From Gemmatimonadales bacterium (lineage in GTDB: Bacteria > Gemmatimonadota > Gemmatimonadetes > Gemmatimonadales > GWC2-71-9): 45,192 bases of DNA. The notes below the pieces were generated by a model, which saw nothing but the letters and a program-made list of their open reading frames with translations, was not told the DNA's origin and did no database searches. This document shows positions 4,860 to 45,151 of this stretch, piece by piece. The position numbers were made by a program, and so were the translations under genes. Each line of letters begins with the position of its first letter. Position 1 is the stretch's first letter. Location of the stretch: NCBI GenBank assembly GCA_036395195.1, contig DASWDP010000009.1, forward strand, positions 1-45,192, read 5' to 3'.

Positions 4860-6050
4860 CTAGCCGTGAACCACGCGTCCGGCGACGACGGTGAGGAGGG
4901 CGGTACAAGGCGGTAGAGGGCGGTAGAGGGCGGTAGAGGGAAACACCGCGAGGTCGGCCTCTTTCCCGACGTCGAGCGAACCGATCTCACTCTCCAGGCC
5001 GAGGGCCCGCGCGCCCTCGAGCGTGAGCATCCGCAGCGCCTCCTCACCTTCGAGCCCGGCCGCGGTCGCTTCGGGCCACAGGCCCACGTCTCCCGTGCTC
5101 ACCACCGAGTCGGTGCCCAAGCCGACGGGCAGTCCGGCCCGCCGGAAGGCGGAGAACGGGGCGGTGCCGTGCCCGTGGGCGCGGTTCGACCGCGGGCAGT
5201 GCGCCACCGCCACCCCCGAGTCCCGCAGAATCACCACGTCTCGCTCGTCCACTTGAACGCAGTGGATGCTCAGACAGTTGCCAGACGCCAAGACGCCAAG
5301 TTGCAAGAGATACTCGACGGGCGAGCAGTGGTGCGGCTCGACCGCGATGCCCCGCGCGCGCAAAGCATCGGCGAACGGGCCCCTGCCCTCCCGCACCAGC
5401 TCAGTCTCCTCGCGCGACTCGGCGAGGTGCATCGCGACCGGCAGCCGCGCGCTCCGCGCGAGCTCGTCCACGGCGCGGTACAACCGGTCGCTCACCGTGT
5501 AGGGCGCGTGCGGCGACACACCGAGCCGCAGCCGCGTCGAGGCGAGGCCGCCGAGCCGCCCGAGCGCCTGCTCCAGCTCGGCGAGGCTGGTCCGCGCCTC
5601 TTCGGGATCGGGGCCGAACACCTCCTGGTACACAATGCCCCGGCCCCCCAACGCGTGCAGCGCTTCCATCACGGCGCCAGTCGAGCCCGTGTCCGCGACG
5701 CAGGTGACCCCCGCGGCCCACGCGTCCCGCACCCCCGTCTCCGCCGCACGGCGGAACTCGTCGGGCGTGGTGGCGTCCTTGAGCGCGCGGATCGTGCGGA
5801 TCCAGCGGGCGAACTCGCGCTCGGCGTTCTTCCCGGCGAGATGCGTGAGCTCGAGATGCGTGTGGGTATTCACCAGGCCGGGGACGAGGACCGCGTCGCG
5901 AAACTCGAGCGCCTGGATCCCCGGGGGAGTGGGGACGTGGGGATGCGGGCCGACGGCCGCGATCTTGCCGCGGTCGTCAACGAGAACGGCGCCGTCCTCG
6001 ATGGGCGGCGCCGTGACGGGGTGCACTGAGCCAGCACGGATGCGCAGCAT
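4860..6050 (-). CDS. Amidohydrolase family protein (chlorohydrolase/deaminase-like)
   Basis: The NTHTHLELTH metal-binding HxH motif is present, and the C-terminus has GSLDVGKEADLAVF. The start is set at the ATG at 6050 (MLRIRAGSV...). The ORF-track extension to 6104 only reads through the heptamer repeat. Confidence 0.8.
   Translation of the reverse strand: MLRIRAGSVHPVTAPPIEDGAVLVDDRGKIAAVGPHPHVPTPPGIQALEFRDAVLVPGLVNTHTHLELTHLAGKNAEREFARWIRTIRALKDATTPDEFRRAAETGVRDAWAAGVTCVADTGSTGAVMEALHALGGRGIVYQEVFGPDPEEARTSLAELEQALGRLGGLASTRLRLGVSPHAPYTVSDRLYRAVDELARSARLPVAMHLAESREETELVREGRGPFADALRARGIAVEPHHCSPVEYLLQLGVLASGNCLSIHCVQVDERDVVILRDSGVAVAHCPRSNRAHGHGTAPFSAFRRAGLPVGLGTDSVVSTGDVGLWPEATAAGLEGEEALRMLTLEGARALGLESEIGSLDVGKEADLAVFPSTALYRPLPPCTALLTVVAGRVVHG
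4891..4940. repeat. Direct tandem 10-mer repeat (CGGTAGAGGG x3, a variant CGGTACAAGG, and a partial GTGAGGAGGG) inside the amidohydrolase 3' end
   Basis: Read directly from the sequence: 4901-4940 is four consecutive 10-mers and 4891-4900 is a degenerate fifth. On the minus strand this encodes PSTALYRPLPPCTALL. Confidence 0.9.
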
Positions 6051-6052
6051 TA

Positions 6053-6136
6053 GGGGTTCGGGGTTCGGGGCTCGGGGCTCGGGGCTCGGGGCTGCCGGTC
6101 GCACTCCCGAGCCCCGAACCCCGAGCCCCGAGTCCC
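6053..6136. repeat. Heptamer-repeat palindrome, GGGGYTC type (six units, 11-nt gap between arrays, 4.4 inverted units)
   Basis: GGGGTTC x2, GGGGCTC x3 and GGGGCTG occupy 6053-6094. GAGCCCC-type units occupy 6106-6136. Manual pairing of 6060-6090 with 6106-6136 gives 31 positions with 1 mismatch and 2 G:T, and a 15-nt loop (6091-6105). Confidence 0.92.
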
Positions 6137-8301
6137 TAGGGTGACACCCCGATGCCGAACGGCGCGTGCACCGGACACGACTGGCTCGGCTCGGTGCCCG
6201 GATAGAACCAGTCCCAGTGCCGCACCTCCTGCGGACAGAACGGCGTCGCGAGGTAACCGTTCGACCAGTCGACCTCTCGGGTGATCAGCGAGTCGGGCCG
6301 AGGCCAGTCGGGCGGCGCGGGACGCCGGTCGTACACGTCGCGCATGAACGCGGTCCAGGCCGGCGCGACGATGCGGCCGCCGCCGGCGTTGTGCTCGAGG
6401 ATACGCTGCTGCAGATCGTATCCCACCCACATCCCGGCCACGAGCTCGGACGTATAGCCGATGAACCAGGCGTCGGTGTAGTCGTCGGTGGTGCCGGTCT
6501 TGCCCGCGGCCGGGAGCGTGAAGCCCGCCTTCCAGACGGCGCTGAAGGCGGTGCCGCGGCGGATCACGTCCTTCATCATATCCACCATGAGCCACTCGTG
6601 CTCGGGATCCATCACCGGCTCGCGCCGGATGGCGGGCTGCCACAGGATGTTCCCCTGCCGGTCCTCCACCCGCAGGAGGCCGATCGGCTCGGCGCGAGTG
6701 CCGAGGGTCGCGAACGCGGTGTACGCGGCGATCATCTCCATCGGGCGCACGCCCTTCGCGCCGATGTGGATCGACGGGTACGGCGGCAGCGGTGTGGTGA
6801 TGCCATAGCGCCGGGCTTCGCCGATCACCGTCTGCTCGCCCAGCGACATGCCGAGCTTGATCGTCGCGAGGTTGCGCGAGAGGTACAGGCCCTCGCGCAT
6901 CGGGATCAGACCGAGGGTCGTGTCGTCGTCGTCCTTCGGCTGCCACAGCGTGGAGTCGAGCTGGATCACCGGCGGGTTCAGGGGCGAGTCGTCGAGGATC
7001 TCGGTCACCGGGTGGCCCGCCCGGATCGCCGCGGAGTACACGAACGGCTTGAAGGTCGAGCCCGGCTGGCGGATCGCCTGCGTGGCGCGGTTGTACTTCG
7101 AGTCGTCGAAGTCGCGCCCGCCGATCATCGCGCGGATGTAGCCGGTGTTCGCCTCGAGGGCCACCAAGGCGCCCTGGAGGTACGGGGTGAACGGCCCGTG
7201 GTCCTCCGCCGACGCCTTGGACGACTCGATGTACTCGCGGTAGGTCGTGCGTCCCGGGAACTTGCCGTTGGAGTACACACCCGCCTCGATGGCGTCGAGC
7301 TGCGACTGCAGCGCGCGCTCCGCCGCCTGCTGCATGTCGAGGTCCAGGGTGGTGTAGATCCGCAGGCCGCCCTCGTACAGGTCGCGCCCGAAGCGCGCGT
7401 CGAGCTGCACGCGCAGCCATTCCACGAAGTAGGGCGCCACGTCGCCGTAGCTCGTGCGGTTGGCGGTGAGCACGAGCGGGTACGCCTTCCACAGCTCGGC
7501 TTCTTCCGGGGTCAGGTAGCCCTGGTCGCGCATCAGCCCCAGCACCACGTTGCGCCGCTGCACGGCGCGCTCGGGGTGAGTGCGCGGGTTGTAGAACGCC
7601 GGCAGCTTGGGCAGCGCCGCGAGCGTCGCCGCCTCGGCGACGTTGAGCTGCCGGGCCGACTTGCCGAAGTAGATCTGCGCCGCCGCGTCCACGCCGTACG
7701 CCCCGGCGCCGAGGTTGATCTGGTTGAGATAGAGCTGGAGGATCGTGTCCTTCGGGAAGTTGCTCTCGATCTCGACCGCCACGCGCGCTTCCTTGAGCTT
7801 GCGCGCCAGCGTCTTCTCGCGCCTGATCTCCTCCGGGAAGATGTTGCGCGCCAGCTGCATCGTGATGGTCGAGAACCCCTGCGCGAAGCTCAACGTCAAC
7901 AGGTTGTTCTTGATCGCGCCGATGATGCGCCAGTAGTCGATCCCGTGGTGCTTGTAGAAGCGCTTGTCCTCGGTGGCGATGAACGCCTGGCGCACCGGCT
8001 CGGGGATCTCGGAGAGCGGCAGCACGGTGCGCCGCTCGGCGCCGAGCTCGCTGATCAGCCGGCCGTCGGCCGCGTACACCTTGGAGGTTTGGACCTGGTG
8101 GTTCGGGTTCGCGACCAGGCGCGAGATGCTGGGGCAGTGTTCGCCCGCGCACACGCGGGTCCACGACCCGTAGGCGAGGCCGAGCAGGTAGGCCCCGAGC
8201 AGCAACGCCGCCGCGATCAGGCGGCCGCGGATTTTCGGATCCCGCCACCAGGAGAGGGGACGCGAGCCGGGGAGGGAGACCGGCGCCGGAATGGACACCA
8301 T
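6136..8301 (-). CDS. mrcA: Penicillin-binding protein 1A (bifunctional glycosyltransferase/transpeptidase)
   Basis: 721 aa with an N-terminal TM anchor. GT51 motifs are EDKRFYKHHGID and RKLKE. Transpeptidase motifs are STFKP (SxxK) and KTGTT. Confidence 0.92.
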   Translation of the reverse strand: MVSIPAPVSLPGSRPLSWWRDPKIRGRLIAAALLLGAYLLGLAYGSWTRVCAGEHCPSISRLVANPNHQVQTSKVYAADGRLISELGAERRTVLPLSEIPEPVRQAFIATEDKRFYKHHGIDYWRIIGAIKNNLLTLSFAQGFSTITMQLARNIFPEEIRREKTLARKLKEARVAVEIESNFPKDTILQLYLNQINLGAGAYGVDAAAQIYFGKSARQLNVAEAATLAALPKLPAFYNPRTHPERAVQRRNVVLGLMRDQGYLTPEEAELWKAYPLVLTANRTSYGDVAPYFVEWLRVQLDARFGRDLYEGGLRIYTTLDLDMQQAAERALQSQLDAIEAGVYSNGKFPGRTTYREYIESSKASAEDHGPFTPYLQGALVALEANTGYIRAMIGGRDFDDSKYNRATQAIRQPGSTFKPFVYSAAIRAGHPVTEILDDSPLNPPVIQLDSTLWQPKDDDDTTLGLIPMREGLYLSRNLATIKLGMSLGEQTVIGEARRYGITTPLPPYPSIHIGAKGVRPMEMIAAYTAFATLGTRAEPIGLLRVEDRQGNILWQPAIRREPVMDPEHEWLMVDMMKDVIRRGTAFSAVWKAGFTLPAAGKTGTTDDYTDAWFIGYTSELVAGMWVGYDLQQRILEHNAGGGRIVAPAWTAFMRDVYDRRPAPPDWPRPDSLITREVDWSNGYLATPFCPQEVRHWDWFYPGTEPSQSCPVHAPFGIGVSP

Positions 8302-9635: not shown

Positions 9636-10289
9636 ATGTTCATCGGCCACTACGCCGTCGCGCTCGCCGCCAAACGCGCCGCCCCCCGGACCTCGCTCGG
9701 CACCCTGTTCGCCGCGGCGTCGCTCGCCGACCTGCTGTGGCCCGCGTTCGTCCTGGCGGGGTGGGAGCAGGTGCGCATCACCGGCGGCGCCAATCCGCTC
9801 CTCGCGCTCACGTTCGACGCGTATCCGATCTCGCACAGCCTGCTCACCCTGCTCGCGTGGGGGGTGCTGTTCGCCCTGCTATACCGCGCGCGCACCGGCT
9901 ACGCCCGCGGCGCGGTCGCCGTCGGCCTCCTCGTGGTCAGCCACTGGGTGCTCGACTTCTTCACGCATCTCCCCGACATGCCGCTGTACCCGGGCGGGCC
10001 GCGGCTGGGCCTCGGGCTCTGGAGTTCGGTGCCGGGAACCGTCCTCGTCGAAGCGCTGATGTACGGCGCCGGCCTCTGGATCTACGCGGCCTCCACCCGT
10101 GCGCGCGACCGGGTGGGCCGCTACGGCTTCTGGGCGCTCGTCGCGGTGATCACCCTGTCGTACGTCGCGTCGCTCTTCAGCCCGCCTCCGCCGACGGTGA
10201 CGGCGTTGGGGATCGGCGGCATCGTGTTCGGCTGGCTGTTCGTGGGGTGGGCGGCGTGGGCGGATAAACACCGAGACGGCGTTACATAA
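9636..10289 (+). CDS. Integral membrane protein, possibly YdjM/DUF457-like metal-dependent hydrolase
   Basis: 217 aa with about six hydrophobic helices. His/Asp residues sit at helix ends (MFIGHY, ISHSLL, SHWVLDFFTH). It starts 2 nt after the tyrS stop. The family assignment is tentative. Confidence 0.65.
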   Translation: MFIGHYAVALAAKRAAPRTSLGTLFAAASLADLLWPAFVLAGWEQVRITGGANPLLALTFDAYPISHSLLTLLAWGVLFALLYRARTGYARGAVAVGLLVVSHWVLDFFTHLPDMPLYPGGPRLGLGLWSSVPGTVLVEALMYGAGLWIYAASTRARDRVGRYGFWALVAVITLSYVASLFSPPPPTVTALGIGGIVFGWLFVGWAAWADKHRDGVT

Positions 10290-10352
10290 ACAACGTTGCA
10301 CGTCAGACGTTGCACGCGAGACGTGGGACGTGCAACGTGTAACGTGTAACGC
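10280..10352. repeat. Heptamer-repeat palindrome, ACGTnnn type, in a convergent intergenic spacer
   Basis: Eight in-phase heptamers run from 10293 to 10348: ACGTTGC ACGTCAG ACGTTGC ACGCGAG ACGTGGG ACGTGCA ACGTGTA ACGTGTA. The stem 10294-10316 / 10329-10351 is 23 bp with 2 mismatches and 1 G:T, and the loop is 12 nt. Confidence 0.88.
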
Positions 10353-10357
10353 CTTCT

Positions 10358-19444: not shown

Positions 19445-20427
19445 TGCCGCTGCACGTGGCGCTCGTCTCGCACCACCGGTTGCCGGTGCAGGGGTACGGC
19501 GGGACGGAGCGCGTGGTCGTGGCGCTCGCGCGGGGGCTTGACGCGCTCGGCCACCGCGTGACGCTGCTCGCCGCGCCCGGCACGCGGGTCGCCGAGGCAG
19601 CGGTCGTCGAGGCGCCGCCGGCCCGCATCCTGGATCCCACCGTCGACCTCGCCACGCTCCTCCCGTCGGACGCGGACGTCGTCCATGCCTTCTTCGCCGT
19701 GCGCCGTACACCCTCCCGCCCGTTCGTCCGGACGCTCGAAGGGAATCTCCGGGCGGGCGTCGCCGCGTCTCCCGACACCATCTTCGTTTCCCGCAACCAT
19801 GCCCACCGCTACGGGAGTGAGGTCTTCGTCTACAACGGCCTCGATCCGGGAGACTATCTGTTTCGATCCGAGAAGGACCAGTACGACCTGTTCCTCGGCC
19901 GGCTGCACAGCGTGAAGGGCTACCGGTGGGCGATCGAAGGCGCGAAGCGGAGCGGCCGGCGGTTGCTGATCGCCGGGGGCTGGCGCCCGAGCTTGCGCCG
20001 CAGGATCCGCTACGTCGGCACGGTCGACGGCCGCAAGAAGGCGGAGCTTCTGGCGGGCGCCCGCTGTCTCTGGATGCCAGCGCTGTGGGACGAGCCGTTC
20101 GGCCTGACGACGATCGAGGCTTTGTTCTCCGGAACGCCCGTCCTGGGCACGCGCCGGGGCGCGCTGCCCGAGGTGATCAGCGCCGAGGTGGGCGCGCTCT
20201 GCGACTCGCTGGACGAGATGGTCGCCGCGGCGGAGACGATCCACACCCGGAGTCCCGAGGCCTGCCGCGCCCACGCCGAGCGCTACTTCACCCACCTCGT
20301 GATGGCGGAGGAGTACGTGCGGATGTACCGGTCCCTGCTCGAGACCGGGCGGCTGCCGCCCGGCCGGCCCACGCCGTTCGCGCCCCCCCCGCCCCCCCCG
20401 CCCCCTCCTAGCGCAGCGCCACGGTGA
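19444..20427 (+). CDS. Glycosyltransferase (GT4-like), tandem paralog B, with a poly-proline tail
   Basis: It starts at MPLHVALVSHHRLPVQGYGG. The start ATG overlaps the stop of paralog A (TGATG). EPFGLTTIEALFSGTPVLGTRRGALPE is present. The C-terminus has nine consecutive prolines encoded by C8-G-C8-G-C5. Confidence 0.85.
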   Translation: MPLHVALVSHHRLPVQGYGGTERVVVALARGLDALGHRVTLLAAPGTRVAEAAVVEAPPARILDPTVDLATLLPSDADVVHAFFAVRRTPSRPFVRTLEGNLRAGVAASPDTIFVSRNHAHRYGSEVFVYNGLDPGDYLFRSEKDQYDLFLGRLHSVKGYRWAIEGAKRSGRRLLIAGGWRPSLRRRIRYVGTVDGRKKAELLAGARCLWMPALWDEPFGLTTIEALFSGTPVLGTRRGALPEVISAEVGALCDSLDEMVAAAETIHTRSPEACRAHAERYFTHLVMAEEYVRMYRSLLETGRLPPGRPTPFAPPPPPPPPPSAAPR

Positions 20428-26671: not shown

Positions 26672-27060
26672 CCCGGGTGGGGGCGGGGGGGGCCACCACG
26701 CCCGCCGAGGAGCGGCTCATCGCGCTCGCCGCCGAGGCAGCCCGGGGGCCCGTACGCGACGGGCTGTTCGCCCTGTGGCTCGTGGTGCGCGTCGCGGAGG
26801 CGCTGCTCCCGCCGCGGCCGGTATCGGGCAAGAATCACCGCCGCCGCCTCCAGGCGCTGGAGGCGCGGCTCGCGAGCCTCGCGCTCCCCGCCCCCCTCAA
26901 GCGCGCCGTCGCCGCGGCGCGGCAGCACCTCGAGGCCGGGACGCCCGCTGCGGCCGCCCTGGTGCTCTCCCAGCTCGTGGCTCCGGCCCGGGACGTGCTC
27001 GGCCCCGAGGCGGGGGACGCCGTGGTCGTTGCCGCCCGCTCCGCCCGCATACATCTATAA
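26668..27060 (+). CDS. Hypothetical protein (Ala/Leu/Arg-rich, helical)
   Basis: 130 aa. The GTG start overlaps the GT9 stop (GTGA). GC3 is high throughout. I recognise no family motif. Confidence 0.5.
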   Translation: MTRVGAGGATTPAEERLIALAAEAARGPVRDGLFALWLVVRVAEALLPPRPVSGKNHRRRLQALEARLASLALPAPLKRAVAAARQHLEAGTPAAAALVLSQLVAPARDVLGPEAGDAVVVAARSARIHL

Positions 27061-30275: not shown

Positions 30276-30514
30276 CGATGACGACCGCTGAGTGGATCTG
30301 CACCCGCTGCGGGTCGACCAACCGGATCCTCGTGCCGGACGGCGCGACGCGGGCGGCGGACGAGTGCCTCACCTGCCACACGCGGCACGCGCTCGAGGTC
30401 GATGCGCGGCCGGTGCGGTGGCGCGCCACTTCCCAGGCTAAAGCCTGGGCTCGGCACGGCACTGTCCTTAAGGACAGTGTTTCGCCGAGCCCACCCTTCA
30501 GGGTGGGGACGTGA
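30272..30514 (+). CDS. Small zinc-ribbon-like protein (CxxC-N18-CxxC); the 3' third reads through a triple-hairpin element
   Basis: 80 aa with ATGA overlap to ruvA and GTGA overlap to ruvB. The first ~50 codons have high GC3 and carry CTRC...CLTC. The last ~28 codons have poor GC3 and coincide with three stem-loops. Confidence 0.45.
30432..30507 (+). other. Three consecutive stem-loops (structured element) immediately 5' of the ruvB start
   Basis: CCCAGGC-TAAA-GCCTGGG lies at 30432-30449. GGCTCGGC (30448-55) pairs with GCCGAGCC (30484-91) and encloses the perfect 20-nt palindrome CACTGTCCTTAAGGACAGTG (30461-80). CCCACCC-TTCA-GGGTGGG lies at 30490-30507. Confidence 0.75.
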
Positions 30515-31550: not shown

Positions 31551-31630
31551 AATTGCGGATCTCGGATTGCGGATTGCGGATTGAAGGCGCGACCGTCGAA
31601 TCCGCAATCCGAAATCCACAATCCGCAATT
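31551..31630. repeat. Heptamer-repeat palindrome, GATTGCG type, filling the ruvB-queA spacer
   Basis: The left arm is AATTGCG GATCTCG GATTGCG GATTGCG GATTGAA (31551-85). The right arm is AATCCGC AATCCGA AATCCAC AATCCGC AATT (31599-630). Pairing covers 32 positions with 4 mismatches, with a 16-nt loop. Confidence 0.92.
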
Positions 31631-31636
31631 CTCCGC

Positions 31637-32668
31637 GTGCGCTACCGAACCGCAGACTTCGACTACACCCTGCCAGCCGAGCTGATTGCTCAGGAACCGC
31701 TCCCCGACCGCGCGGCGAGCCGCCTGCTCGTCCTCGAGCGGGCGAACGGGCGCGTCCGCCACGCGCGCTTCCCGGACCTCCTCGAGCTGATCGCGCCGCA
31801 AGACGTACTCGTCCTCAACGTGTCGCGGGTAATCCCGGCGCGACTGCACGGGAGACGGGAGACGGGAGCCGCGGCGGAGATCCTGCTCGTCCGCGAGCTG
31901 CCCGACGGGAGCTGGCTCGCGATGGGGCGCCCCGGCGGGAAACTCAAGCCTGGACGGCGCGTGACCTTCGGCGACGACAGCGCGGTGGAGATCGTCGAGA
32001 TGCTGGGCGGCGGGCTGCGACGGGTGCGTTTCGTCGGGCCGCTCGATGCCCGGGCGACGCTCGCCACGTACGGCGCGGTCCCGCTGCCCCCGTATATCCG
32101 CCGCGCCCCCCGACCCGAGGACCGCGAGCGCTACCAGACGGTGTACGCCGCGCACGACGGCAGCGTCGCCGCGCCGACGGCGGGGCTGCATTTCACCCCC
32201 GAGCTGCTCGCCCGGCTCCGCGCGACGGGCGCGGCGACGGCCGAGCTCGATCTCCACGTCGGCCCGGGCACCTTCAAGCCCGTGGAAACGGACGACCTGG
32301 CGCACCACACGATGCACGCCGAAGCGTACGCGGTGGGCGAGGACGCGGCGGCACTCATTAACGCGAGACGGGAAGCGGGAGGCCGCGTCTGGGCGGTGGG
32401 GACCACGGTGGTGCGGACGCTCGAGACGTGCGCCGACGAGCGCGGCCGGATCCGCGCGGGCGCCGGGGAGACGCGGGCGTTCATTTATCCGCCGTACCCG
32501 TTCCGCGCCCTCGACCGCCTGCTCACCAATTTTCACCTGCCGCGCTCGACGCTGCTAATGTTGGTGTGCGCCTTCGGGGGATATGAGCACGTGATGGGGG
32601 CGTATCGGGAGGCGATTGCGGACGGATACCGGTTCTATTCGTATGGCGATGCGATGGCGATCATCTGA
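31637..32668 (+). CDS. queA: S-adenosylmethionine:tRNA ribosyltransferase-isomerase QueA
   Basis: From the GTG at 31637 it reads (M)RYRTADFDYTLPAELIAQEP, which aligns with the QueA N-terminus of E. coli (MRVTDFSFELPESLIA). The ORF-track TTG at 31538 only reads through the upstream repeat. Confidence 0.9.
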   Translation: MRYRTADFDYTLPAELIAQEPLPDRAASRLLVLERANGRVRHARFPDLLELIAPQDVLVLNVSRVIPARLHGRRETGAAAEILLVRELPDGSWLAMGRPGGKLKPGRRVTFGDDSAVEIVEMLGGGLRRVRFVGPLDARATLATYGAVPLPPYIRRAPRPEDRERYQTVYAAHDGSVAAPTAGLHFTPELLARLRATGAATAELDLHVGPGTFKPVETDDLAHHTMHAEAYAVGEDAAALINARREAGGRVWAVGTTVVRTLETCADERGRIRAGAGETRAFIYPPYPFRALDRLLTNFHLPRSTLLMLVCAFGGYEHVMGAYREAIADGYRFYSYGDAMAII

Positions 32669-32745
32669 TTTCGGATTGCGGATTGTGGATTGCGGATTGG
32701 CAGGTCGACCTTCGAATCCGCAATCCGAAATCCGCAATCCGCAAT
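32667..32745. repeat. Heptamer-repeat palindrome, GATTGCG type, filling the queA-tgt spacer
   Basis: The left arm is GATTTCG GATTGCG GATTGTG GATTGCG GATTGGC (32667-701). The right arm is AATCCGC AATCCGA AATCCGC AATCCGC AAT (32715-45). Unit and spacer core (GACC.TCGAATCC) match those of 31551-31630. Confidence 0.92.
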
Positions 32746-32752
32746 AGCGCCC

Positions 32753-33934
32753 GTGTTCGAGTTCACCATCGAAGCGACGTCCGGCGCGGCCCGCACCGGC
32801 ACCCTCACTCTGCCCCACGGCACCGTCGAGACGCCGGTGTTCATGCCGGTGGGCACGCAGGGGACCGTGCGCGCGCTCTCGCCCGGCGACCTGCGCGCGG
32901 CGGGCGCGGAGCTGGTGCTCGCGAACACCTACCACCTGCACGTGCGCCCGGGCGAGCAGGTGGTCGAGAAGCTCGGGCGGCTGCACCGGTTCATGGGCTG
33001 GGACCGCCCCCTGCTCACCGATTCGGGCGGCTTCCAGGTGTTCTCGCTCGCGGGGTTGCGGCGGGTGGACGAGGACGGCGTCGAGTTCCAGAGCCATGTG
33101 GACGGGAGCCGCCGCACGCTCACGCCGGAGCGGGCCACGGAGATCCAGTGGACCCTGGGCGCCGACATCGCGATGGCGTTCGATCACGTGGCGCCGGGGG
33201 GCGCGGATGAAGGCACCGCACGCGACGCCCTGGAGCGGACGCTGCGGTGGCTGGAGCGGTGCGCCAAGAGGCATCGGGGGCTGATGGAAGGTCGGAAGGT
33301 TGGAACGTTGGAAGGCGGTTCCGTCCAACCTTCCAACCTTCCAACCTTCCCCCAGACTCTCTGGCCCATCCTGCAAGGCGGCACCCATCTCCAGCTTCGG
33401 ACCGAGGGTCTCCGCCGCATCCTCGAGCTCGGCTCCTGGACCGGCCTCGCCATCGGCGGGCTCTCCGTCGGCGAGCCCAAGCCGGTGATGTATGAGATGC
33501 TCGAGCGGCTGGAGCCCGGGCTTCCCGCGCCGCTGCCGCGTTATCTTATGGGTGTCGGGTTCCCCGAGGACCTGGTGGCGGCGGTGGAGCGCGGGGTGGA
33601 CCTGTTCGACTGCGTTGCGCCGACGCGCAACGGGCGCAACGGCTCCGCGTTCACGCCCGACGGCCCGGTGAACATCCGCAACGCCGAGCATCGTGAGGAC
33701 GCCCGGCCGCTCGACGAGGCCTGCGACTGCGAGACGTGCACCACGTTCTCGCGCGGCTATCTCCGCCACCTGTTCATGGCAGAGGAGCTGCTGGGACTCC
33801 GGCTCCTGTCGTTGCACAACGTCCGCTACCTGATCCGGCTCGCCGCAGCCATGCGGGCCGCGATCCGGCGGAACGCCTTCGGCGCATGGGCCGAGGAGTG
33901 GCGCCGCCGCTACCTGCAACCGAGATCCGCATGA
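32753..33934 (+). CDS. tgt: tRNA-guanine transglycosylase Tgt (with an in-frame repeat-encoded insertion)
   Basis: From the GTG at 32753 it reads (M)FEFTIEATSGAARTGTL..TPVFMPVGT. It has GGLSVGE, YLMGVG and the zinc motif CDCETC...H. The ORF-track start at 32690 lies in the upstream repeat. Confidence 0.9.
   Translation: MFEFTIEATSGAARTGTLTLPHGTVETPVFMPVGTQGTVRALSPGDLRAAGAELVLANTYHLHVRPGEQVVEKLGRLHRFMGWDRPLLTDSGGFQVFSLAGLRRVDEDGVEFQSHVDGSRRTLTPERATEIQWTLGADIAMAFDHVAPGGADEGTARDALERTLRWLERCAKRHRGLMEGRKVGTLEGGSVQPSNLPTFPQTLWPILQGGTHLQLRTEGLRRILELGSWTGLAIGGLSVGEPKPVMYEMLERLEPGLPAPLPRYLMGVGFPEDLVAAVERGVDLFDCVAPTRNGRNGSAFTPDGPVNIRNAEHREDARPLDEACDCETCTTFSRGYLRHLFMAEELLGLRLLSLHNVRYLIRLAAAMRAAIRRNAFGAWAEEWRRRYLQPRSA
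33286..33350. repeat. Octamer-repeat palindrome (GGAAGGTY / CCAACCTT) lying in frame inside tgt
   Basis: GGAAGGTC GGAAGGTT GGAACGTT GGAAGGCG occupy 33286-317. CCAACCTT x3 plus CC occupy 33325-350. The loop is about 9 nt. It translates as EGRKVGTLEGGSVQPSNLPTFP. Confidence 0.9.
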
Positions 33935-35735: not shown

Positions 35736-36352
35736 GGCTACCGCTGCCGCGCCTGCACGCGATCACCGACGAGCGGATCGCCCGGCGGGCGGACCTGGAC
35801 GACGTCGCCCGCGAGCTCGCGGCGGGCGGCGGAGCCGAGATCGCCGTCCACGCGCGCGGCCGGTCGCTCACCGGTCTGGAGCACTACGAACTCGCTACCC
35901 GTCTATCCGCCTATCCGCCTACCCGTCTATTTGTCAACGACCGCCTGGACGTCGCCCTCGCCGCGGGCGCCGCGGGCGTGCAGCTCACCCACACGAGCCT
36001 CGATCCGGCCGACGCGCGGCGCCTCGACACGAACTGGTGGATCGGCATGTCGGTCCACGGGCTGCGCGAGGCGACGGCCGCACGAGACGCGGGCGCCGAC
36101 TATCTTTTGGTAGGCCCCATGTATCCCACCGCCACACACCCGCAGGGCGAGCCGCTGGGCGTGGCGGGGGGGGGGCTCGCGGCGATCGTCCGCCTGGGGC
36201 TCCCGGTGATCGCCATCGGGGGGGTGACGCCCGAGCGGGTGCCGGAGCTCAGGGCCGCCGGTGCGTACGGCGTGGCCGCCATCCGCGCCCTGTGGGACGC
36301 GGGCGACCCCGGTGCCGCCGCGCGGCGGATGGTGGGGGAGCTGGAGACATGA
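35732..36352 (+). CDS. thiE: Thiamine-phosphate synthase ThiE
   Basis: 206 aa from a GTG at 35732 (GTGA overlap with fmt). Motifs are LHAITD, LFVNDRLDVA, YLLVGPMYPT and IAIGGV. Confidence 0.88.
   Translation: MRLPLPRLHAITDERIARRADLDDVARELAAGGGAEIAVHARGRSLTGLEHYELATRLSAYPPTRLFVNDRLDVALAAGAAGVQLTHTSLDPADARRLDTNWWIGMSVHGLREATAARDAGADYLLVGPMYPTATHPQGEPLGVAGGGLAAIVRLGLPVIAIGGVTPERVPELRAAGAYGVAAIRALWDAGDPGAAARRMVGELET
35896..35935. repeat. Direct tandem 8-mer repeat (TAYCCGYC x4 plus TATTTGTC) inside thiE
   Basis: The units are TACCCGTC TATCCGCC TATCCGCC TACCCGTC TATTTGTC. ACCCGTCTA recurs exactly 24 nt apart, giving TRL...TRL in the protein. Confidence 0.85.
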
Positions 36353-37390: not shown

Positions 37391-38650
37391 TTGCAGATCC
37401 TCCACGCGGTGCGCGACGGCGCCACGTTCCAGGCGGCGCGCGACCGCGTCCTCGGCGACCTGGCCGAGCGCGACCGCCGGCTCGCCTACGAGCTCGCCGC
37501 CGGCGTGCTGCGCCGGCAGGCGGAGCTCGACCGGGCGCTCGCGCTCCGTACCACCGACCCCCGACTCCACGATGTCCTGCGCCTCGGCGCCTACCAGCTG
37601 CGCGCGCTCACACGCGTTCCGGCGTACGCCGCCGTGTCCACGAGCGTCGCGCTCGCGCGGGAGACAGAGGGAGAGTCCGCGGCGCGGTTCGTCAACCAGG
37701 CGCTGCGGAAGCTGCAGCGGGGCTCGGGGATCGGGGCTCGGGATTCGGGCACTACTCACCCCCGCTGGCTCCTCGAGCGATGGCGTCGCCAGTTCGGGCT
37801 CGAGGGAACCGAAGGGCTCATCGCGTGGAACGACAGGAAATCGCCGCTCACCCTGCAACCCGTTCGCTGGAGCGCAGCCGAGCTCGGGGCCCGGCTCCAA
37901 GAGGCGGGCTTCGGTGTAACAGAAGCGCCGTTTGGGGCGGGGTTGCGTGTGAACCCGAGCCCCGAGTCCCGAGTCCCGAGCCCCTCGCAGCTGCCGGGCT
38001 TCGAGGAGGGCGCCTTCATCGTCCAGGACCCCGCCCACGCACTGGTATGCCGGTACGCCGCGGTGCCGCCGGGAGCCCTCGTGTACGACGCCTGCGCCGC
38101 CCCGGGCGGTAAGGCGGTGATGCTCGAGCGGCTCGGGGCCCGCGTGGTGGCCGGGGACACGCGGCGCGAGCGGCTCGCCCGGCTGGTCGCGACGGCGCGC
38201 CGCGCGGGAGTGGCGATTCGTGTCGCCCTCACCGATCTTCTGTCGGCGCCATTCGCGGCGGGCGCCCTGGACGCCGTCCTCGTCGACGCCCCGTGCTCGG
38301 CGACCGGCACTATGGCGCGGCATCCGGATGCCCGTTGGCGCGTGACGGCGCGAACGATCGCGCGGGCCGCCGAGCGGCAGCGCGCGCTGATCACTGCGGC
38401 CGCGCGGCTCGTCACGCGCGGCGGTCACCTAATCTACGCGACCTGCTCGCTCGAGCCCGAGGAGAACGGCGACATCGTGAACGAGTTCCTGGCGCGCCAT
38501 CCCGAGTTCGCCCGCGACCCCGCCCCTCCCCCCGAGGCCCCCGGCGCGGTGCCCGCGGAGCTGCTGACGGCGGAGGGCGACTTCCAGGCGCTGCCGCAGC
38601 GCCACGGGACGGGCGGCGCCTACGCGGCCCGCCTCGTGCGGAGCCGGTGA
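37391..38650 (+). CDS. rsmB: 16S rRNA (cytosine967-C5)-methyltransferase RsmB/Sun
   Basis: It has a NusB-like N-domain, then FIVQD, DACAAPGGK, DAPCSATG and ATCSLEPEEN. The true start is uncertain: the TTG at 37391 truncates the first conserved helix (see finding). Confidence 0.85.
   Translation: MQILHAVRDGATFQAARDRVLGDLAERDRRLAYELAAGVLRRQAELDRALALRTTDPRLHDVLRLGAYQLRALTRVPAYAAVSTSVALARETEGESAARFVNQALRKLQRGSGIGARDSGTTHPRWLLERWRRQFGLEGTEGLIAWNDRKSPLTLQPVRWSAAELGARLQEAGFGVTEAPFGAGLRVNPSPESRVPSPSQLPGFEEGAFIVQDPAHALVCRYAAVPPGALVYDACAAPGGKAVMLERLGARVVAGDTRRERLARLVATARRAGVAIRVALTDLLSAPFAAGALDAVLVDAPCSATGTMARHPDARWRVTARTIARAAERQRALITAAARLVTRGGHLIYATCSLEPEENGDIVNEFLARHPEFARDPAPPPEAPGAVPAELLTAEGDFQALPQRHGTGGAYAARLVRSR
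37719..37750. repeat. Heptamer repeat arm, GGGGCTC type, in frame inside rsmB
   Basis: The arm reads GGGGCTC GGGGATC GGGGCTC GGGATTC GGGC and encodes RGSGIGARDSG. Confidence 0.85.
37951..37984. repeat. Inverted heptamer repeat arm, GAGYCCC type, in frame inside rsmB, 200 nt from its partner
   Basis: The arm reads GAACCC GAGCCCC GAGTCCC GAGTCCC GAGCCCC and encodes NPSPESRVPSPS. It is the reverse complement of the units at 37719-37750 and 6053-6094. Confidence 0.85.
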
Positions 38651-40636: not shown

Positions 40637-41555
40637 CATCGGGCAGCTGGTCGTGCGCAACTGGCCGATCAAGCTCGCGGCCCTGTTCTTCGCGGTCATG
40701 CTGTACGTGGCGGTCGCGGCGCAACAGCCGCTGACACAGACCTTCCCCATGCGGCTGGCCATCGCGATCCCGCCCGGCCGGAGCGTCAAGCAGCAGCCGG
40801 CGGGAGTGACCGTCGTGGTCACCGGCAAGGGGACTGAGATCCTGAAGCTCCGCTCCTTTCCGCGCGTGATCCGCAAGGTCGTCCCGGACACCTTCTCCGC
40901 GTCGGTGTGGCACCTGCACCTGCAGCCATCCGACGTGGACGTGCCGAAGGGAACGGACGTGTTGGTCGCGGACATCGTCCCACGCGACATCGACGTCGTC
41001 ATGGACACGGCGGCCCGGAAGGACGTGAAGATCGTTCCCCTGGTGAAGGTCGAGGCCGAGTCCGGGTACGTGCTGCGGGGCATCTCGATCGTGCCGAGCG
41101 TGGCGCACCTGGTGGGGCCGGAAAAGAGCCTCGCGCGCATCGAGTCGGTCACGACGCTGCCGGCGGTCGTGTCGAGCGTCAACGGCCCGTTCTTCCGCAC
41201 CGTGCCGATCGACACGACTCCGCTCGGCCTCGTGCGCATCGCGCCGAAGGAGGTCCGGGTGGCCGGCGAGGTTGCGGCCATCATCGAGCGCTCGATCCCG
41301 GGCGTTCCGATCACGACCGCGGCCTCGGGCTTCACGGGCTTCCTGCTGTCGCCGGAGCGCGTGGTGGTGTCGGTGCGCGGGCCCGAGTCGAAGGTCAACG
41401 CCCTCACCAGGGACAGCCTGCGCGTCGTCGCCCACCTCGTCGGGAAGGCGGGGTCGGGGGGCTACGCGCGGCTCACCGTCACCGCGCCGCCGGGGATCGT
41501 CGCGCGCGTGGTGCCCGACTCCGTCGCGTTGAAGCGCAAGACCGGCCGTGGCTGA
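40626..41555 (+). CDS. YbbR-domain-containing protein (CdaR-like)
   Basis: 309 aa from a GTG start. The N-terminal anchor is NWPIKLAALFFAVMLYVAV, followed by repeated beta-rich YbbR-type modules. Confidence 0.65.
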   Translation: MASSIGQLVVRNWPIKLAALFFAVMLYVAVAAQQPLTQTFPMRLAIAIPPGRSVKQQPAGVTVVVTGKGTEILKLRSFPRVIRKVVPDTFSASVWHLHLQPSDVDVPKGTDVLVADIVPRDIDVVMDTAARKDVKIVPLVKVEAESGYVLRGISIVPSVAHLVGPEKSLARIESVTTLPAVVSSVNGPFFRTVPIDTTPLGLVRIAPKEVRVAGEVAAIIERSIPGVPITTAASGFTGFLLSPERVVVSVRGPESKVNALTRDSLRVVAHLVGKAGSGGYARLTVTAPPGIVARVVPDSVALKRKTGRG

Positions 41556-42618
41556 GGTCGTGCTGGGGATCGAGACGTCGTGCGACGAGACGTCCGCCGC
41601 CGTGCTCGTCGGCGAGCGCGCGCGCCCCGAGCTCGCGGGCCTCGTGATCCTGTCGCAGGACGTGCACCGGGTGTTCGGCGGCGTGGTGCCGGAGCTCGCG
41701 AGCCGCGCGCACCTCACCGCGCTGCCCGCGGTGGTGGACCGTGCGCTCGCCGAGGCGGGGCTCTCCTGGAGCGCGGTGGACGCGGTCGCCGTCACCCAGG
41801 GGCCCGGGCTCGTGGGCGCCCTGCTCGTCGGCGTCGTGTACGCGAAGGCGCTCGCCTACGCGGGCGGCCGGGAGCTGATCGGCGTGCACCACATGGAGGG
41901 ACACCTGTTCGCCCCGGCCGTCGAGGATCCCGAGCTCGCGCCCCCGTTCGTCGCGCTGCTCGTGTCGGGCGGGCACACGCTGCTGCTCGACGTCCCCGCC
42001 TGGGGCCGCTACCGGCTCCTGGGTCAGACGCGCGACGACGCCGCCGGCGAAGCGTTCGACAAGGTGGCGACGCTGCTCGGGCTCGGGTATCCCGGCGGGC
42101 CCGCGATCGAGCGCCTTGCCCGGGAGGGCGATCCGGCGCGCTTCAGCTTCCCGCGCCCGATGCGCGACGAGGGATTCGAGTTCTCGTTCTCCGGGCTCAA
42201 GACCGCGGTGCTGCGCGCCGTCCGCGCCAGCGACGATCTCGAGCGCGACCGGCCTCATCTCGCCCGCGCGTTCCAGGATGCCGTCCTCGACGTGCTCGTG
42301 ACCAAGCTGGAGCGCGCCGTGCGCGCCACCGGCTATCGCACCGCCGTGCTCGGCGGCGGCGTGGCGTGCAGCCGCACGCTCGCCGCCCTCGCCGCCGAGC
42401 GGCTGGCGGGGAAGGGGGGGGCGCTGGCGCGCGTCGCCGTCGCGAGCCCGCGGCTCAACGCCGACAACGCCGCGATGATCGCACGCGCCGGCTGGTACCG
42501 CCTCGGCCTCGGCGAACGGAGCGACTGGACGCTCGACGCGCGGGCCGACCTTCCGCTCCCAGGCCTCGAGCCACTGGTCATTCCGCAATCCGCAATCCAC
42601 AATCCGAAATCCCAATGA
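41548..42618 (+). CDS. tsaD: tRNA N6-adenosine threonylcarbamoyltransferase TsaD
   Basis: 356 aa. Motifs are VLGIETSCDETS, VTQGPGLVGALLVG, HHMEGH and GGGVACS. The last ~13 codons are encoded by a heptamer repeat. Confidence 0.92.
   Translation: MAEVVLGIETSCDETSAAVLVGERARPELAGLVILSQDVHRVFGGVVPELASRAHLTALPAVVDRALAEAGLSWSAVDAVAVTQGPGLVGALLVGVVYAKALAYAGGRELIGVHHMEGHLFAPAVEDPELAPPFVALLVSGGHTLLLDVPAWGRYRLLGQTRDDAAGEAFDKVATLLGLGYPGGPAIERLAREGDPARFSFPRPMRDEGFEFSFSGLKTAVLRAVRASDDLERDRPHLARAFQDAVLDVLVTKLERAVRATGYRTAVLGGGVACSRTLAALAAERLAGKGGALARVAVASPRLNADNAAMIARAGWYRLGLGERSDWTLDARADLPLPGLEPLVIPQSAIHNPKSQ
42580..42614. repeat. Half element (one arm only) of the AATCCGC heptamer type at the tsaD/lgt junction
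   Basis: The arm reads ATTCCGC AATCCGC AATCCAC AATCCGA AATCCCA and ends at the lgt ATG (42615). I see no GATTGCG-type partner arm nearby. Confidence 0.85.
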
Positions 42619-43451
42619 CCATCTATCCCCTCGTCTTCCAGCTCGGCCCCCTGACCATCACCGGCTACGGCCTGATGATGATGGTGGCGTTCCTCATGGC
42701 GGGGTGGGCGATCCAGATGGATCTGCGCCGCCGCGGCATGAACGAGGACTACGCCGCCGACGTCGTGTTCGCCGCCGTGATCGGCGGCATCGTCGGCGCC
42801 AAGGTGTGGTACGTGCTGCTCACCGGGGAATGGGACACGCTGTTCCGGCGCGGCGGGTTCGTCTGGTACGGGGGTTTCCTCGGCGGCGTCGCGGGCGTGC
42901 TGCTCAACGGCTGGCGCAAGCGCGTCCCGCCGCGCTGGACGATGGAGCTCACCGCCGCCCCCCTCGCCCTCGGGTACGCGCTGGGGCGCGTCGGCTGCTT
43001 CCTCGTGAACGACGACTACGGGATACCGTCCAGTCTCCCGTGGGCGATGACGTTCCCCGAGGGACTGCCCCCCACCACCGTTGCGAACCTCGAGCTGATG
43101 CACGTGCCGTTCCCGCCGAACGCGAATCCGGCGGAGGTCGTCGCCGTGCATCCCACGCAGCTCTACGAGACGGCCTTGATGATGCTGGCGTTCTGGTGGC
43201 TGTGGCGGCTGCGGGAGCATCGGCACGGCACCGGGTGGCTGTTCGGCGTGTACCTCGTGCTCGCCGGCGCGGAGCGGTTCCTCGTCGAGTTCGTGCGGGC
43301 GAAGGACGACCGGCTGTTCGGCCCCATCAGCCTGGCGCAGGTGACGAGCGTGCTGCTCGTGCTCGTCGGACTCTACGTCATGCAGCGGCTGCGCGCGCCC
43401 GCGGCCGCCGCCGAGTCCGTGCCGCCCGCCCTCAAGCCCCAACCCGCCTGA
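42615..43451 (+). CDS. lgt: Prolipoprotein diacylglyceryl transferase
   Basis: 278 aa from the ATG at 42615 (ATGA overlap with tsaD). Motifs are YGLMMMVAF, GRVGCFLVNDDYG and HPTQLYE. Confidence 0.9.
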   Translation: MTIYPLVFQLGPLTITGYGLMMMVAFLMAGWAIQMDLRRRGMNEDYAADVVFAAVIGGIVGAKVWYVLLTGEWDTLFRRGGFVWYGGFLGGVAGVLLNGWRKRVPPRWTMELTAAPLALGYALGRVGCFLVNDDYGIPSSLPWAMTFPEGLPPTTVANLELMHVPFPPNANPAEVVAVHPTQLYETALMMLAFWWLWRLREHRHGTGWLFGVYLVLAGAERFLVEFVRAKDDRLFGPISLAQVTSVLLVLVGLYVMQRLRAPAAAAESVPPALKPQPA

Positions 43452-43452
43452 G

Positions 43453-45081
43453 GTGCGCCGGGCGCCCGTCGCCATCGCCCTGGCGTTCTCGGTCAGCGCC
43501 TGCGGGGGAGGCGGCGCGCCCGACCTGATCCTCGTCGGCGGCCGGATCTTCACCGCCGACCCCACCCGCCCCTGGGTGCAGGCCCTCGCGATCCGGGGGG
43601 AGCGGATCGTCGCCGCCGGGCCGGGCGACTCGGTGCGCGCGCTGGCGGGCCCGCGCACCCGCGTCCGTGACCTGGGCGGCCGGACCGTGATCCCCGGCAT
43701 CAACGACGCGCACGCGCACGTCGCCCCCGTCACGCGCGGCATCGCCGTGCGGACGCCGCCCCAGGCCGGGCTGCGCGAGCTGATCGACTCGCTCGCCGCC
43801 GTGAGCCGCCGCTACTCGCGCGGCGCGTGGCTGCTCGCGAGCATCGGCGACCGCGTGCTCGACGACCCACGCGCCAACCGCTTTTTCCTCGACAGCGTCC
43901 TCCCGGACGACCCCACGGTGCTGGAGAGCTGGTCGGGCCACGAAGCGATTCTGAACAGCGCCGCGCTCGCCGCCCTCGGCCTCGGGCACGACACGCCCGA
44001 TCCGCTCGGCGGCCGTTTGGGACGCGCCCGAGGCTCGGGCAACCTCGACGGCCGCCTCTCCGAGTACGCCTGGTGGGCGGCGCGCCGCCGGCTGGCGAGC
44101 GCGCGCGCCGACTCCGCAAGTCGCGCCGATTTCCGGGCGTACGCCGCCACGGCGGCGCGCCTCGGGATCACCTCGCTCCAGGACATGAACAACGCCCTCA
44201 GCACGGCGCGCGCCGTCGCCCTCGTCCGCGCGGCCGACCTGCCGATCCGCTGGCGCCTGATCCGGTTTCCCATGACGCGCCCCGGGGCGCGCGACCTCGC
44301 CGACACCCGCGAGCGCCGCGGCCGGCCCGGCGCCGCGCTCGACGTCTCGGGCACGAAGTACATCCTCGACGGCACCCCGGTCGAGCGCGGGGCCCTGATG
44401 CGGCGGCCCTACGCCGACCGCCCCGGCTGGCGCGGCGAGCTGAACTTCCCGCCCGACACGGTGGGCGCGATCGTGGCGGAGGCGCTCGCCTCGCGGGACC
44501 AGCTGCTGGTCCACGCCGTGGGCGACAGCGCGGTGAGCCTGGTGCTCGTGACGCTGCGCCGGGCGGCGCCGGACTCGACCTGGCGCGCGCTGCGCCCGCG
44601 CATCGAGCACGCCGACTTCCTGTCCGCCGACCTCGTCCCACTCGCGCGGGAACTCGGGGCGGTGGTCGTTCAAAACCCGGTGCACTTCACCATCCCCGAT
44701 CTCCTGCGCCGGCGCTTCGGGCCGGCGCTCGCCGCGACGGCGCAGCCGTTGCACTCGCTCCTTTCGGCCGGAATTCCCGTCGCGCTCGGCTCGGACGGCC
44801 CCATGAACCCGTATCTGGGCATCATGCTCGCCGTCACGCACCCGACCAATCCTGCCGAGGCGCTCACGCGCGTGCAGGCGGTGACGGCATACACACGCGG
44901 CTCGGCCTACGCGGAGCGCGCCGAGCGCGACCTCGGCACACTCGGTCCGGGAATGCTCGCGGATCTCGCGGTGCTGTCGCAGGACGTCTTCAGCGTTCCC
45001 GTGGGTGATCTGCCGAGGACGGAAAGCGTGCTGACGCTGGTGGGGGGAAAGGCGGTGTGGGATGCGGGGGTGGTGAAGTAG
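43453..45081 (+). CDS. Amidohydrolase family (Amidohydro_3 / YtcJ-like) lipoprotein
   Basis: 542 aa with the lipobox AFSVSAC. It has the NDAHAHV metal site and the C-terminal GMLADLAVLSQDVF...GGKAVW typical of this family. Confidence 0.85.
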   Translation: MRRAPVAIALAFSVSACGGGGAPDLILVGGRIFTADPTRPWVQALAIRGERIVAAGPGDSVRALAGPRTRVRDLGGRTVIPGINDAHAHVAPVTRGIAVRTPPQAGLRELIDSLAAVSRRYSRGAWLLASIGDRVLDDPRANRFFLDSVLPDDPTVLESWSGHEAILNSAALAALGLGHDTPDPLGGRLGRARGSGNLDGRLSEYAWWAARRRLASARADSASRADFRAYAATAARLGITSLQDMNNALSTARAVALVRAADLPIRWRLIRFPMTRPGARDLADTRERRGRPGAALDVSGTKYILDGTPVERGALMRRPYADRPGWRGELNFPPDTVGAIVAEALASRDQLLVHAVGDSAVSLVLVTLRRAAPDSTWRALRPRIEHADFLSADLVPLARELGAVVVQNPVHFTIPDLLRRRFGPALAATAQPLHSLLSAGIPVALGSDGPMNPYLGIMLAVTHPTNPAEALTRVQAVTAYTRGSAYAERAERDLGTLGPGMLADLAVLSQDVFSVPVGDLPRTESVLTLVGGKAVWDAGVVK

Positions 45082-45151
45082 CGTCATCCGTCGTCCGTCG
45101 TCCGTTATCCGCAACTACGGATGACGGATTACGGATGACGGATTACGGAAA
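45082..45151. repeat. Heptamer-repeat palindrome, CGTCRTC / ACGGATK type, directly after the last gene of the array
   Basis: There are ten in-phase heptamers. The stem 45082-45111 / 45118-45147 covers 30 positions with 2 mismatches and 3 G:T, and the loop is the 6-nt CAACTA. Confidence 0.9.

Follow-up and report, generated by a model that had tools for sequence, protein, structure and literature searches.

Palindromic repeats that lie in frame inside conserved protein genes have been described in Rickettsia, where the Rickettsia palindromic elements (RPEs) form families of about 100-150 bp that keep a full-length consensus together with the encoded peptide, and are dispersed as palindromes, often in frame within unrelated housekeeping genes whose folds tolerate the peptide (PMC10969869). 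The element analysed here lies within tgt, the gene for queuine/preQ1 tRNA-ribosyltransferase, on a 45,192-nt stretch of DNA from a soil Gemmatimonadales bacterium (contig DASWDP010000009.1, positions 1-45,192; hereafter the window), and a preliminary description had named RPEs as its precedent. That likeness holds for behaviour: the Gemmatimonadales elements are palindromic, form long hairpins and stand in frame in tgt, radA, pheT and atpG. They differ from RPEs in being 65-95 nt long and built of tandem 8-nt (or 7-nt) units, in that copies share only the unit, and in that at the tgt site the unit itself changes between lineages; no sequence relationship to RPEs was seen, nor would one be expected. 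Since it lacks a conserved full-length consensus, the tgt element falls outside the RPE family. Our data lead us to favour, if without great confidence, the reading that it is a palindrome of tandem repeats whose persistence comes from the nucleic-acid level and not from protein function, and which Tgt tolerates, in translated form, in a surface loop. Hairpins of its class are found widely in this Gemmatimonadales lineage, with position, arm period and self-complementarity conserved while the sequence is not.

In architecture the closest described system is that of the heptamer repeats of Xanthomonas (GGGAATC) and Nostoc (GGGGAYT), which are arrays of about four units, found mostly between co-oriented genes and near stop codons, whose repeat type is conserved and whose length varies at orthologous sites (Rehm et al., 2015; PMC4692102). 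In Xanthomonas, 70-75 convergent inverted pairs are potential stem-loops, and a single G-rich unit, read as a G-quadruplex former and scarce in coding regions, is dominant (PMC4692102). The elements described here likewise consist of convergent tandem arrays with about four units per arm, and it is the 78-nt spacer hairpins of the window that resemble the heptamer repeats; their unit is 7 nt, whereas the tgt unit is 8 nt. The Gemmatimonadales elements also use many units, most of which are not prone to form G-quadruplexes (ATTGCGG, GAACGCG and GGAAGGTT have no G3 tracts), and the 8-nt class lies in frame inside genes (tgt, thiE, radA, pheT, atpG), as do the 7-nt arrays of rsmB, whose arms are 204 nt apart. 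The cyanobacterial STRR heptamers are related to the Xanthomonas and Nostoc repeats.

Other known systems are less close. The REP, BIME and REPIN sequences of Proteobacteria are abundant short extragenic palindromes with a lineage-specific consensus that occur in operons just past stop codons (PMC3733652, PMC3116915). REPs are 20-40 nt long, not made of tandem units, headed by GTAG or CGTC, linked to RAYT transposases and extragenic by definition. The tgt element is 65-75 nt long, made of tandem units, without a GTAG or CGTC head and intragenic, and no transposase was seen at the loci in hand. Quasi-palindrome correction, template-switch mutagenesis and slipped-strand mispairing are established mutational mechanisms of Escherichia coli, known as sources of point or short templated mutations. 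Such processes would account for complementary arms, homogenised arrays and copy-number change, but not readily for a fixed size of 78 nt or for arms 204 nt apart, and they are not known to give rise to structures of 60-90 nt that form a conserved class throughout a genome. Terminal inverted repeats, target-site duplications and a parent insertion sequence characterise MITEs, and none of these is evident in the present elements. The tgt element in its entirety is the inverted repeat, and comparison with its relative L081 revealed neither a target-site duplication nor a clean empty site. Some MITEs and similar repeats (Coxiella QMITE, intragenic ERIC, Anabaena MITEs) are non-coding repeats able to form in-frame fusions of open reading frames (ORFs) (PMC10969869). 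No description of elements of the present kind in Gemmatimonadetes was found in the literature, of which our coverage was partial, so that novelty is not proven; the chance that the entire class represents a new phenomenon is nevertheless substantial.

The tgt coding sequence (32,753-33,934, forward strand as for all features below unless stated; 393 aa, probable GTG start) is identified by PF01702 and by 100%-identical proteins, and residues 2-389 of its product align to the Zymomonas mobilis TGT structures (E = 4e-115, HMMER). The window, whose closest proteins bear the names Gemmatimonadetes or Gemmatimonadales, has a G+C content of 71.5% and the gene order ruvB-queA-tgt-yajC-def-fmt-thiE...rsmB. 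The whole imperfect palindrome spans 33,281-33,355, with 35-nt arms at 33,281-33,315 and 33,321-33,355 that are 86% complementary (repeat finder). The left arm is made of four octamers, GGAAGGTC, GGAAGGTT, GGAACGTT and GGAAGGCG (33,286-33,317; Tandem Repeats Finder (TRF) period 8, 3.9 copies), which conform to the general unit GGAAGGTN, and the right arm is a perfect array of three CCAACCTT units followed by CC (33,325-33,350; TRF period 8, 3.4 copies, 100% matches). The arrays are separated by a 9-nt spacer, CGGTTCCGT (33,316-33,324), with the apical loop predicted at 33,316-33,320, so that the in-frame octamer palindrome of four left units, nine nucleotides and three right units first reported is confirmed. 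The base of the stem is formed by the Leu codon CTG (33,281-33,283) and the Gln codon CAG (33,353-33,355), which belong to the conserved E/G-L ... Q-T-L-W-P flanks, and orthologous tgt hairpins are closed by matching CTG/TTG...CAG pairs. The RNA from 33,271 to 33,365 folds at -54.7 kcal/mol with a stem of ~30 bp, in agreement with the 26-30 bp mRNA hairpin originally proposed; dinucleotide shuffles average -33.0 kcal/mol (z-score -6.41; 0/200 as stable). The 16-mer GGAAGGTTGGAAGGTT, allowing at most three mismatches, occurs six times in the window where 0.03 occurrences are expected, every one of them within the tgt element, and no further copies of GGAAGGTT were found elsewhere in the window.

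The translated segment, EGRKVGTLEGGSVQPSNLPTFP (33,287-33,352), is free of stop codons in the tgt frame, and neither GGAAGGTT nor its complement contains a stop in any frame, the readings being GRLEGWKV and NLPTFQPS. The predicted tryptic peptide across residues 178-200 of Tgt is VGTLEGGSVQPSNLPTFPQTLWPILQGGTHLQLR. Reading the hairpin as an intrinsic terminator was rejected, the stem being followed by CCCCCAGACTCTCTGG without a T run, as was a -1 frameshift site, with no canonical slippery heptamer upstream of the element. Translational bypass, or removal of an intervening sequence, was likewise discarded: the orthologous segments described below, all 68 of them and in 21 different lengths, are multiples of three, in frame and stop-free, as would be predicted if the segment is decoded. 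A scan of the whole window against Rfam 15 at gathering thresholds gave no matches, and no tRNAs were found in it.

The preliminary description had set a linker of 24 residues in Tgt against one of 7-10 residues in other bacteria. The linker is indeed longer here, but the figures have to be revised: counted between the conserved residues W and Q, the segment has 43 aa in the window Tgt, 26 aa in Z. mobilis TGT, 27 aa in distant Gemmatimonadota and mostly 21-27 aa among 146 diverse Tgt representatives. Orthologues outside the lineage have no homologous segment of such length, contrary to the refuting outcome that the preliminary description had named. Measured from R-W to Q-G-G, the segment has 46 aa compared with 30 aa (..ELAxxxPERQTLWP) in more distant Gemmatimonadota. 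Compared with the ancestral-type Gemmatimonadota segment this is a net 16 aa more, and compared with Z. mobilis TGT 17 aa more. The element adds about 16-19 residues, lineage-specific and with the frame kept, close to the frame-preserving insertion of ~15-17 codons estimated earlier. In the alignment with Z. mobilis TGT, 17 gap positions fall between the helix ...RWAKRSRDAFDSRKEQAENA / ...MRWAKRSRDAFDSRKEQAENA and the strand ALFGIQQG (ILQGG in the window Tgt), which comes just after the insert and ends in the equivalent of the substrate-binding Gln-203. An AlphaFold2 model (45 close homologues; mean predicted local distance difference test score (pLDDT) 49), used for the order of secondary structure alone because of its low pLDDT, places a helix at 153-180, coil at 181-202 and a strand at 203-207. 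Mapped by alignment, the insert occupies a helix-to-strand loop that tolerates insertions; by topology this loop would lie at the N-terminal side of the TIM barrel, opposite the C-terminal ends of the strands, where catalysis takes place. Among the 146 representatives a few unrelated lineages have insertions of their own at exactly this site, up to 171 aa long; such unrelated insertions occur in P0379, P0303, P0344 and P0361, the 171-aa one resembling a DUF559/Vsr-type endonuclease domain and another, of 61 aa, having SPQTAN-like repeats.

To follow the site through its relatives, tgt with 10-kb flanks was taken from 80 Gemmatimonadales/Gemmatimonadota species genomes and from six further close relatives, and 68 orthologous segments had recognisable anchors. 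The site is hypervariable in Gemmatimonadales, and the hairpin is kept while its unit differs by lineage. Short segments (27-31 aa) make up 31/68, none of them hairpin-like, and 33/68 have inserts of at least 36 aa, with a folding z-score of -3 or lower in 20/33 and of -2 or lower in 24/33; an arm period of 8 nt scores best in 58/66 half-segments of the inserts. The unit at the site is GGAAGGTT in the window and in L004, L082 and L203-L206 (W-type), CGGACAGT / CGGACGGT in L012 and L019, CGGATGGT in L021, GGACGGAC in L056 and L069 (-95 kcal/mol), GGCACGTC in L027, CACGACGC in L001, L002, L008, L009 and L013, and GGAATGAT in L020 and L063. The 120 closest Tgt proteins have the same insert families, and also half or empty forms. 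In L082, whose Tgt is 90% identical to that of the window, the left arm consists of three TTGGAAGG units and the right arm of three CCGTCCAA units, so that homogenisation has acted on each arm separately. One-armed or collapsed remnants are seen in L005, L006, L030, L059, L061, L074 and L081: a single arm is retained in L005, L006 and L030, L059 and L061 retain opposite arms of one GGGGCAGC hairpin, and L081 (86% identical) has just CTG-GCGGACGGTCAA-CAG at the hairpin site. The 27-aa 'ELADGRQTLWP' forms, three residues under the ancestral type, look like collapsed hairpins. A neighbour-joining tree of Tgt with the insert masked was too poorly resolved, at 80-90% identity, for gains and losses to be counted.

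The codon usage of the inserts shows that nucleotide-level rules, not codon-level ones, set their sequence. In the window tgt the G+C content at third codon positions (GC3) is 0.60 in the insert compared with 0.92 in the flanking codons, and across species it is 0.68 in inserts compared with 0.87 in the flanking 200 codons, being lower in 31/31 species (Wilcoxon p = 1e-6). The deficit grows with the strength of the hairpin (Spearman -0.43, p = 0.016), and the fully decayed inserts of L074 and L080 have a normal GC3. This trend argues against a protein-level origin of the insert, and the pattern fits a life cycle in which a hairpin built from arrays decays into an ordinary coding loop.

The view of the tgt element as a lone oddity has to be given up, as it is one of a class: the window contains six or more other hairpins or arms built of tandem units. 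The queA-tgt spacer has a 78-nt heptamer hairpin (GATTGCG/AATCCGC, 32,668-32,745; repeat finder, TRF) whose first bases are the queA stop codon TGA and which ends 7 nt before the tgt start, and an 80-nt heptamer hairpin (ATTGCGG/AATCCGC, 31,551-31,630; repeat finder, TRF) fills the ruvB-queA spacer. Two more heptamer hairpins are GGGGCTC/CCCGAGC (6,053-6,136, reverse strand), between a gene stop (6,136-6,138) and the next ATG, and CGTCGTC/ACGGATG (45,082-45,149), directly 3' of the stop of the ORF at 43,345-45,081. All four start at, or at most 8 nt from, the upstream stop codon (e.g., TGA-TTGCGG), and those with a downstream gene in view end a few nucleotides before its start, with no Shine-Dalgarno-like sequence evident between hairpin and gene start. 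Their arms are about 31 nt and their loops about 16 nt long, often giving exactly 78 nt. A half element of the right-arm type only, (TCCGCAA)x5 (42,582-42,616), forms the C-terminal tail of the ORF at 41,533-42,618 and ends at an ATGA overlap with the next, lgt-like gene (MTIYPLVFQLGP...). In 1.27 Mb of Gemmatimonadales DNA, 40/65 long inverted repeats have arms with a period of 7 or 8 nt, and period 7 is dominant among the tandem arrays of related DNA overall (162 arrays with at least three copies). The unit of the ruvB-queA and queA-tgt spacers is GCGGATT, GCGGAAT or GCGGAAC depending on the species, with the 78-nt size and the internal imperfection retained, and the two spacers have the identical unit variant in 8/9 genomes, a count that is not controlled for phylogeny.

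Several side observations concern these spacers and other repeats of the window. ORF calls for queA and tgt extend upstream into the spacer hairpins because the hairpins are stop-free, which yields spurious N-terminal extensions (..RISDCGLRIEGATVESAIRNPQSAI..) such as L204 4,802-5,917 and the window ORFs from 31,538 and from 32,690, the latter being a longer tgt ORF that begins within the upstream spacer hairpin. A second dispersed palindromic family, which is not of the tandem-unit kind, consists of three adjacent small hairpins (CCCAGGCT..AGCCTGGG, ACTGTCCTTAAGGACAGT and CCCACCCT..AGGGTGGG) between CTCGGC and GCCGAG; it occurs at 30,432-30,507 in the window and also at L203 ~3,702, L204 ~3,647, L015 ~7,608 and ~9,898, L032 ~9,922 and L037 ~5,878. 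In L015 and L032 it replaces the heptamer hairpin of the queA-tgt spacer, which in L081 is empty. The same spacer has grown to 0.35-0.9 kb at L205 5,652-6,001 and L206 1,360-2,258, where one or two ORFs without a recorded Pfam hit are called on the other strand; these enlarged spacers are another sign that the queA-tgt spacer accepts insertions. Elsewhere in the window, an inverted repeat with 7/14-nt-periodic arms (ACGTTGCACG.. / ..CGTGCAACGTGTAACG; 10,274-10,357) lies within a stretch at 8.3-11.5 kb that has no gene by the GC3 filter, a 10-nt tandem array (GAGGGCGGTA)x4.5 occupies a gene junction at 4,896-4,940, and homopolymer tracts of C9-11 and G9 lie at 20,379-20,405 and 26,674-26,693.

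Arrays inside other genes were assigned as coding by motif or Pfam, as gene calls based on GC3 missed several of them. In rsmB two in-frame arms, (CGGGGCT)x4 in the linker before the HPxWL motif (37,718-37,749) and (CCCGAGC)x4 in the loop before LPGFxxG (37,954-37,984), flank 204 nt of conserved coding sequence and are mutually complementary at 22/25 positions in the window. Over 16 species they are 93% complementary (360/388), variant by variant, although the unit is different in nearly every species. An unbiased pairing test reached the threshold score in 20/53 species compared with 4/300 cross-species controls. Orthologous sites were seen at L003, L008, L010, L013, L014, L016, L019, L022, L031, L033, L037-L039 and L042. 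Such arms would imply a long-range helix, or inverted-repeat conversion, across the conserved coding sequence. A lone octamer array in a thiE-like gene, (CTATCCGC)x4.5 (35,895-35,930), is in frame and read ..LSAYPPTR..; it lies in a helix-to-strand segment of another TIM-barrel enzyme, adds no length compared with the ThiE structure 1xi3, has orthologous arrays in at least 17 loci, and has no complementary partner arm that could be found in the window. A metagenome scan with the pattern (GGAAGGTN)2GGAAGG matched at least 120 loci, of which 80 were screened; none of those screened was tgt, so the scan is no gauge of the frequency of tgt copies. Many of the matches with the GGAAGGTT unit, on contigs of 64-70% GC, are hairpins, and in-frame ones were found in RadA (in the linker that follows the zinc finger), in PheT (between the tRNA-binding and B3_4 domains), in AtpG, in a TolB-like signal peptide and in LolA. 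The radA contig with the GGAAGGTT hairpin is itself from Gemmatimonadales. Across 118 RadA orthologues the linker is constant at 60-66 aa and spells ..GRKVGRLEGWK..PVQLSNLPT.. or ..GRTGGRADR..SPPVRLSA.., the peptide families of the Tgt inserts; the RadA arrays thus overwrite the linker and do not lengthen it.

Misassembly can affect palindromes and short repeats, but an assembly or sequencing artefact, the error that the preliminary description had itself considered, is scarcely credible here because nine independent assemblies share the insert peptide: eight further contigs of differing lengths (NCBI, ENA, JGI) encode a 98-100% identical Tgt with an identical insert peptide, and homologous in-frame hairpins occupy the tgt site in dozens of other species. 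It is highly improbable that the loop was selected for Tgt function, such as the binding of tRNA or of a partner, with the palindrome being incidental. Close relatives do share a fairly conserved W-type peptide, and the site lies few residues before the strand of the substrate-binding Gln-203; however, the peptide of one lineage is unrelated to that of another, many orthologues lack the loop, both GC3 and the period of 8 nt point to nucleotide-level rules, and the GGAAGGTT unit encodes loops in unrelated proteins. We also regard as unlikely that a discrete, non-autonomous mobile element of the MITE, REP or RPE kind was moved by a transposase into tgt and retained since it was in frame. The dispersal of GGAAGGTT hairpins among unrelated genes and spacers would fit such an element, as would the uniform 78 nt of the heptamer hairpins at different sites, the sharing of one unit variant by both operon spacers, and the queA-tgt spacer, which has the look of a site that receives insertions, with a different palindrome in L015/L032 and none in L081. 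Yet the earlier term 'insertion' is supported for the added codons and not for a discrete mobile unit, as the window and L081, compared at tgt, reveal neither a duplicated target site nor a clean empty one, and the copies have only the 8-nt unit and no termini in common, while loop sequence, loop length and unit number vary. The radA and thiE arrays replace linker residues without added length, and two rsmB arms around conserved coding sequence are impossible from a single insertion. Within-genome sharing of octamer units (mean 2.5 mismatches compared with 2.9 cross-genome, n = 10) is not above the cross-genome control, so a genome-specific octamer family is not supported, and no transposase was linked to the elements, although no systematic search was made.

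Selection on mRNA structure is a weightier alternative, if still one to which we give only a minority of our belief. The hairpins would here be functional double-stranded RNA: RNase III or other processing sites, mRNA stabilisers, devices for translational coupling at stop codons, or ribosome pause sites at the boundaries of domains or loops, their pairing kept by compensatory evolution and the protein insert a by-product. Position and pairing are conserved during sequence turnover at four orthologous sites, the variants of the rsmB arms mirror each other position by position, and pairing between arms 204 nt apart is plausible as RNA and not as a DNA cruciform. The ten W-type tgt hairpins have double compensatory changes at 3/20 consensus stem pairs, intergenic members run from a stop codon to the next start inside operons, and coding members sit at linkers or loops of RadA, PheT, RsmB, Tgt and ThiE. 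On the other side, mismatches that would be compatible with G-U pairs are not in excess over A-C ones, either in tight hairpins (26 vs 19) or in rsmB (8 vs 6), although the pooled comparison on the sense strand (34 vs 25, p = 0.30) is a powerless test, and most stem mismatches are of the transversion type. Selection for pairing alone leaves the tandem-repeat arms unexplained, and the scan against Rfam matched no family. About half of the relatives, an 86%-identical one among them, have lost the tgt hairpin or keep it only in halved or decayed form, and on these grounds it would be dispensable. A wider version, which we put forward just as tentatively, is that Gemmatimonadales have a genome-wide system of self-complementary tandem repeats whose pairing is maintained by selection on the structure of RNA or of single-stranded DNA, in essential genes too and across 200 nt (rsmB); this would be a post-transcriptional structure code (processing, pausing, coupling) carried by operon spacers and by surface loops of proteins, with the tgt hairpin as one instance.

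On the reading that we favour, a translated palindrome maintained at the level of nucleic acid, the tgt element would be read through by the ribosome, with the ~30-bp mRNA stem unwound during translation. It would be tolerated in Tgt because its length is divisible by three, because neither unit nor complement contains a stop codon in any frame, and because the site is a helix-to-strand loop. Its persistence would be driven at the nucleic-acid level and not by protein function: arrays may turn over via slippage-type homogenisation within each arm, the complementarity of the arms may be restored either via intrastrand template switching (quasi-palindrome correction) or via selection for pairing, and hairpins would repeatedly be truncated, collapse or decay into ordinary coding sequence. 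Some observations weigh against this account. In relatives with 77-90% Tgt identity the W-type peptide (..WKVG..PSNLPTFP) shows good conservation, which could reflect selection at the protein or RNA level as well as array dynamics. The heptamer hairpins are fixed at 78 nt with a conserved internal mismatch while the unit has changed in every copy, a pattern that simple slippage would not keep. The pairing of the rsmB arms across 204 nt is poorly explained by local template switching and favours selection on pairing. The surface exposure of the Tgt loop is argued from topology, the structural model being poor (mean pLDDT 49). Selection on an RNA helix, or some other copying process, is what the arms of rsmB and the spacer hairpins of fixed size tend to suggest, and the frequent loss at tgt leans towards dispensability.

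If the favoured reading is true, this would be the second independent case, after the Rickettsia RPEs, of translated palindromic repeats in conserved housekeeping enzymes, here in a free-living soil phylum and with an architecture, tandem 7/8-mers, different from that of RPEs. In practical terms, the elements make proteins look more divergent than they are, give rise to spurious ORF starts and point to loops in which insertions are tolerated. With the arms of rsmB and the spacer hairpins next to stop codons, the long-standing question of selfish DNA versus selected RNA structure in the abundant palindromes of bacteria can be put to the test, and the tgt site would offer a natural series for repeat DNA becoming coding, from the perfect hairpin through separately homogenised arms and the half remnant to the codon-adapted loop.

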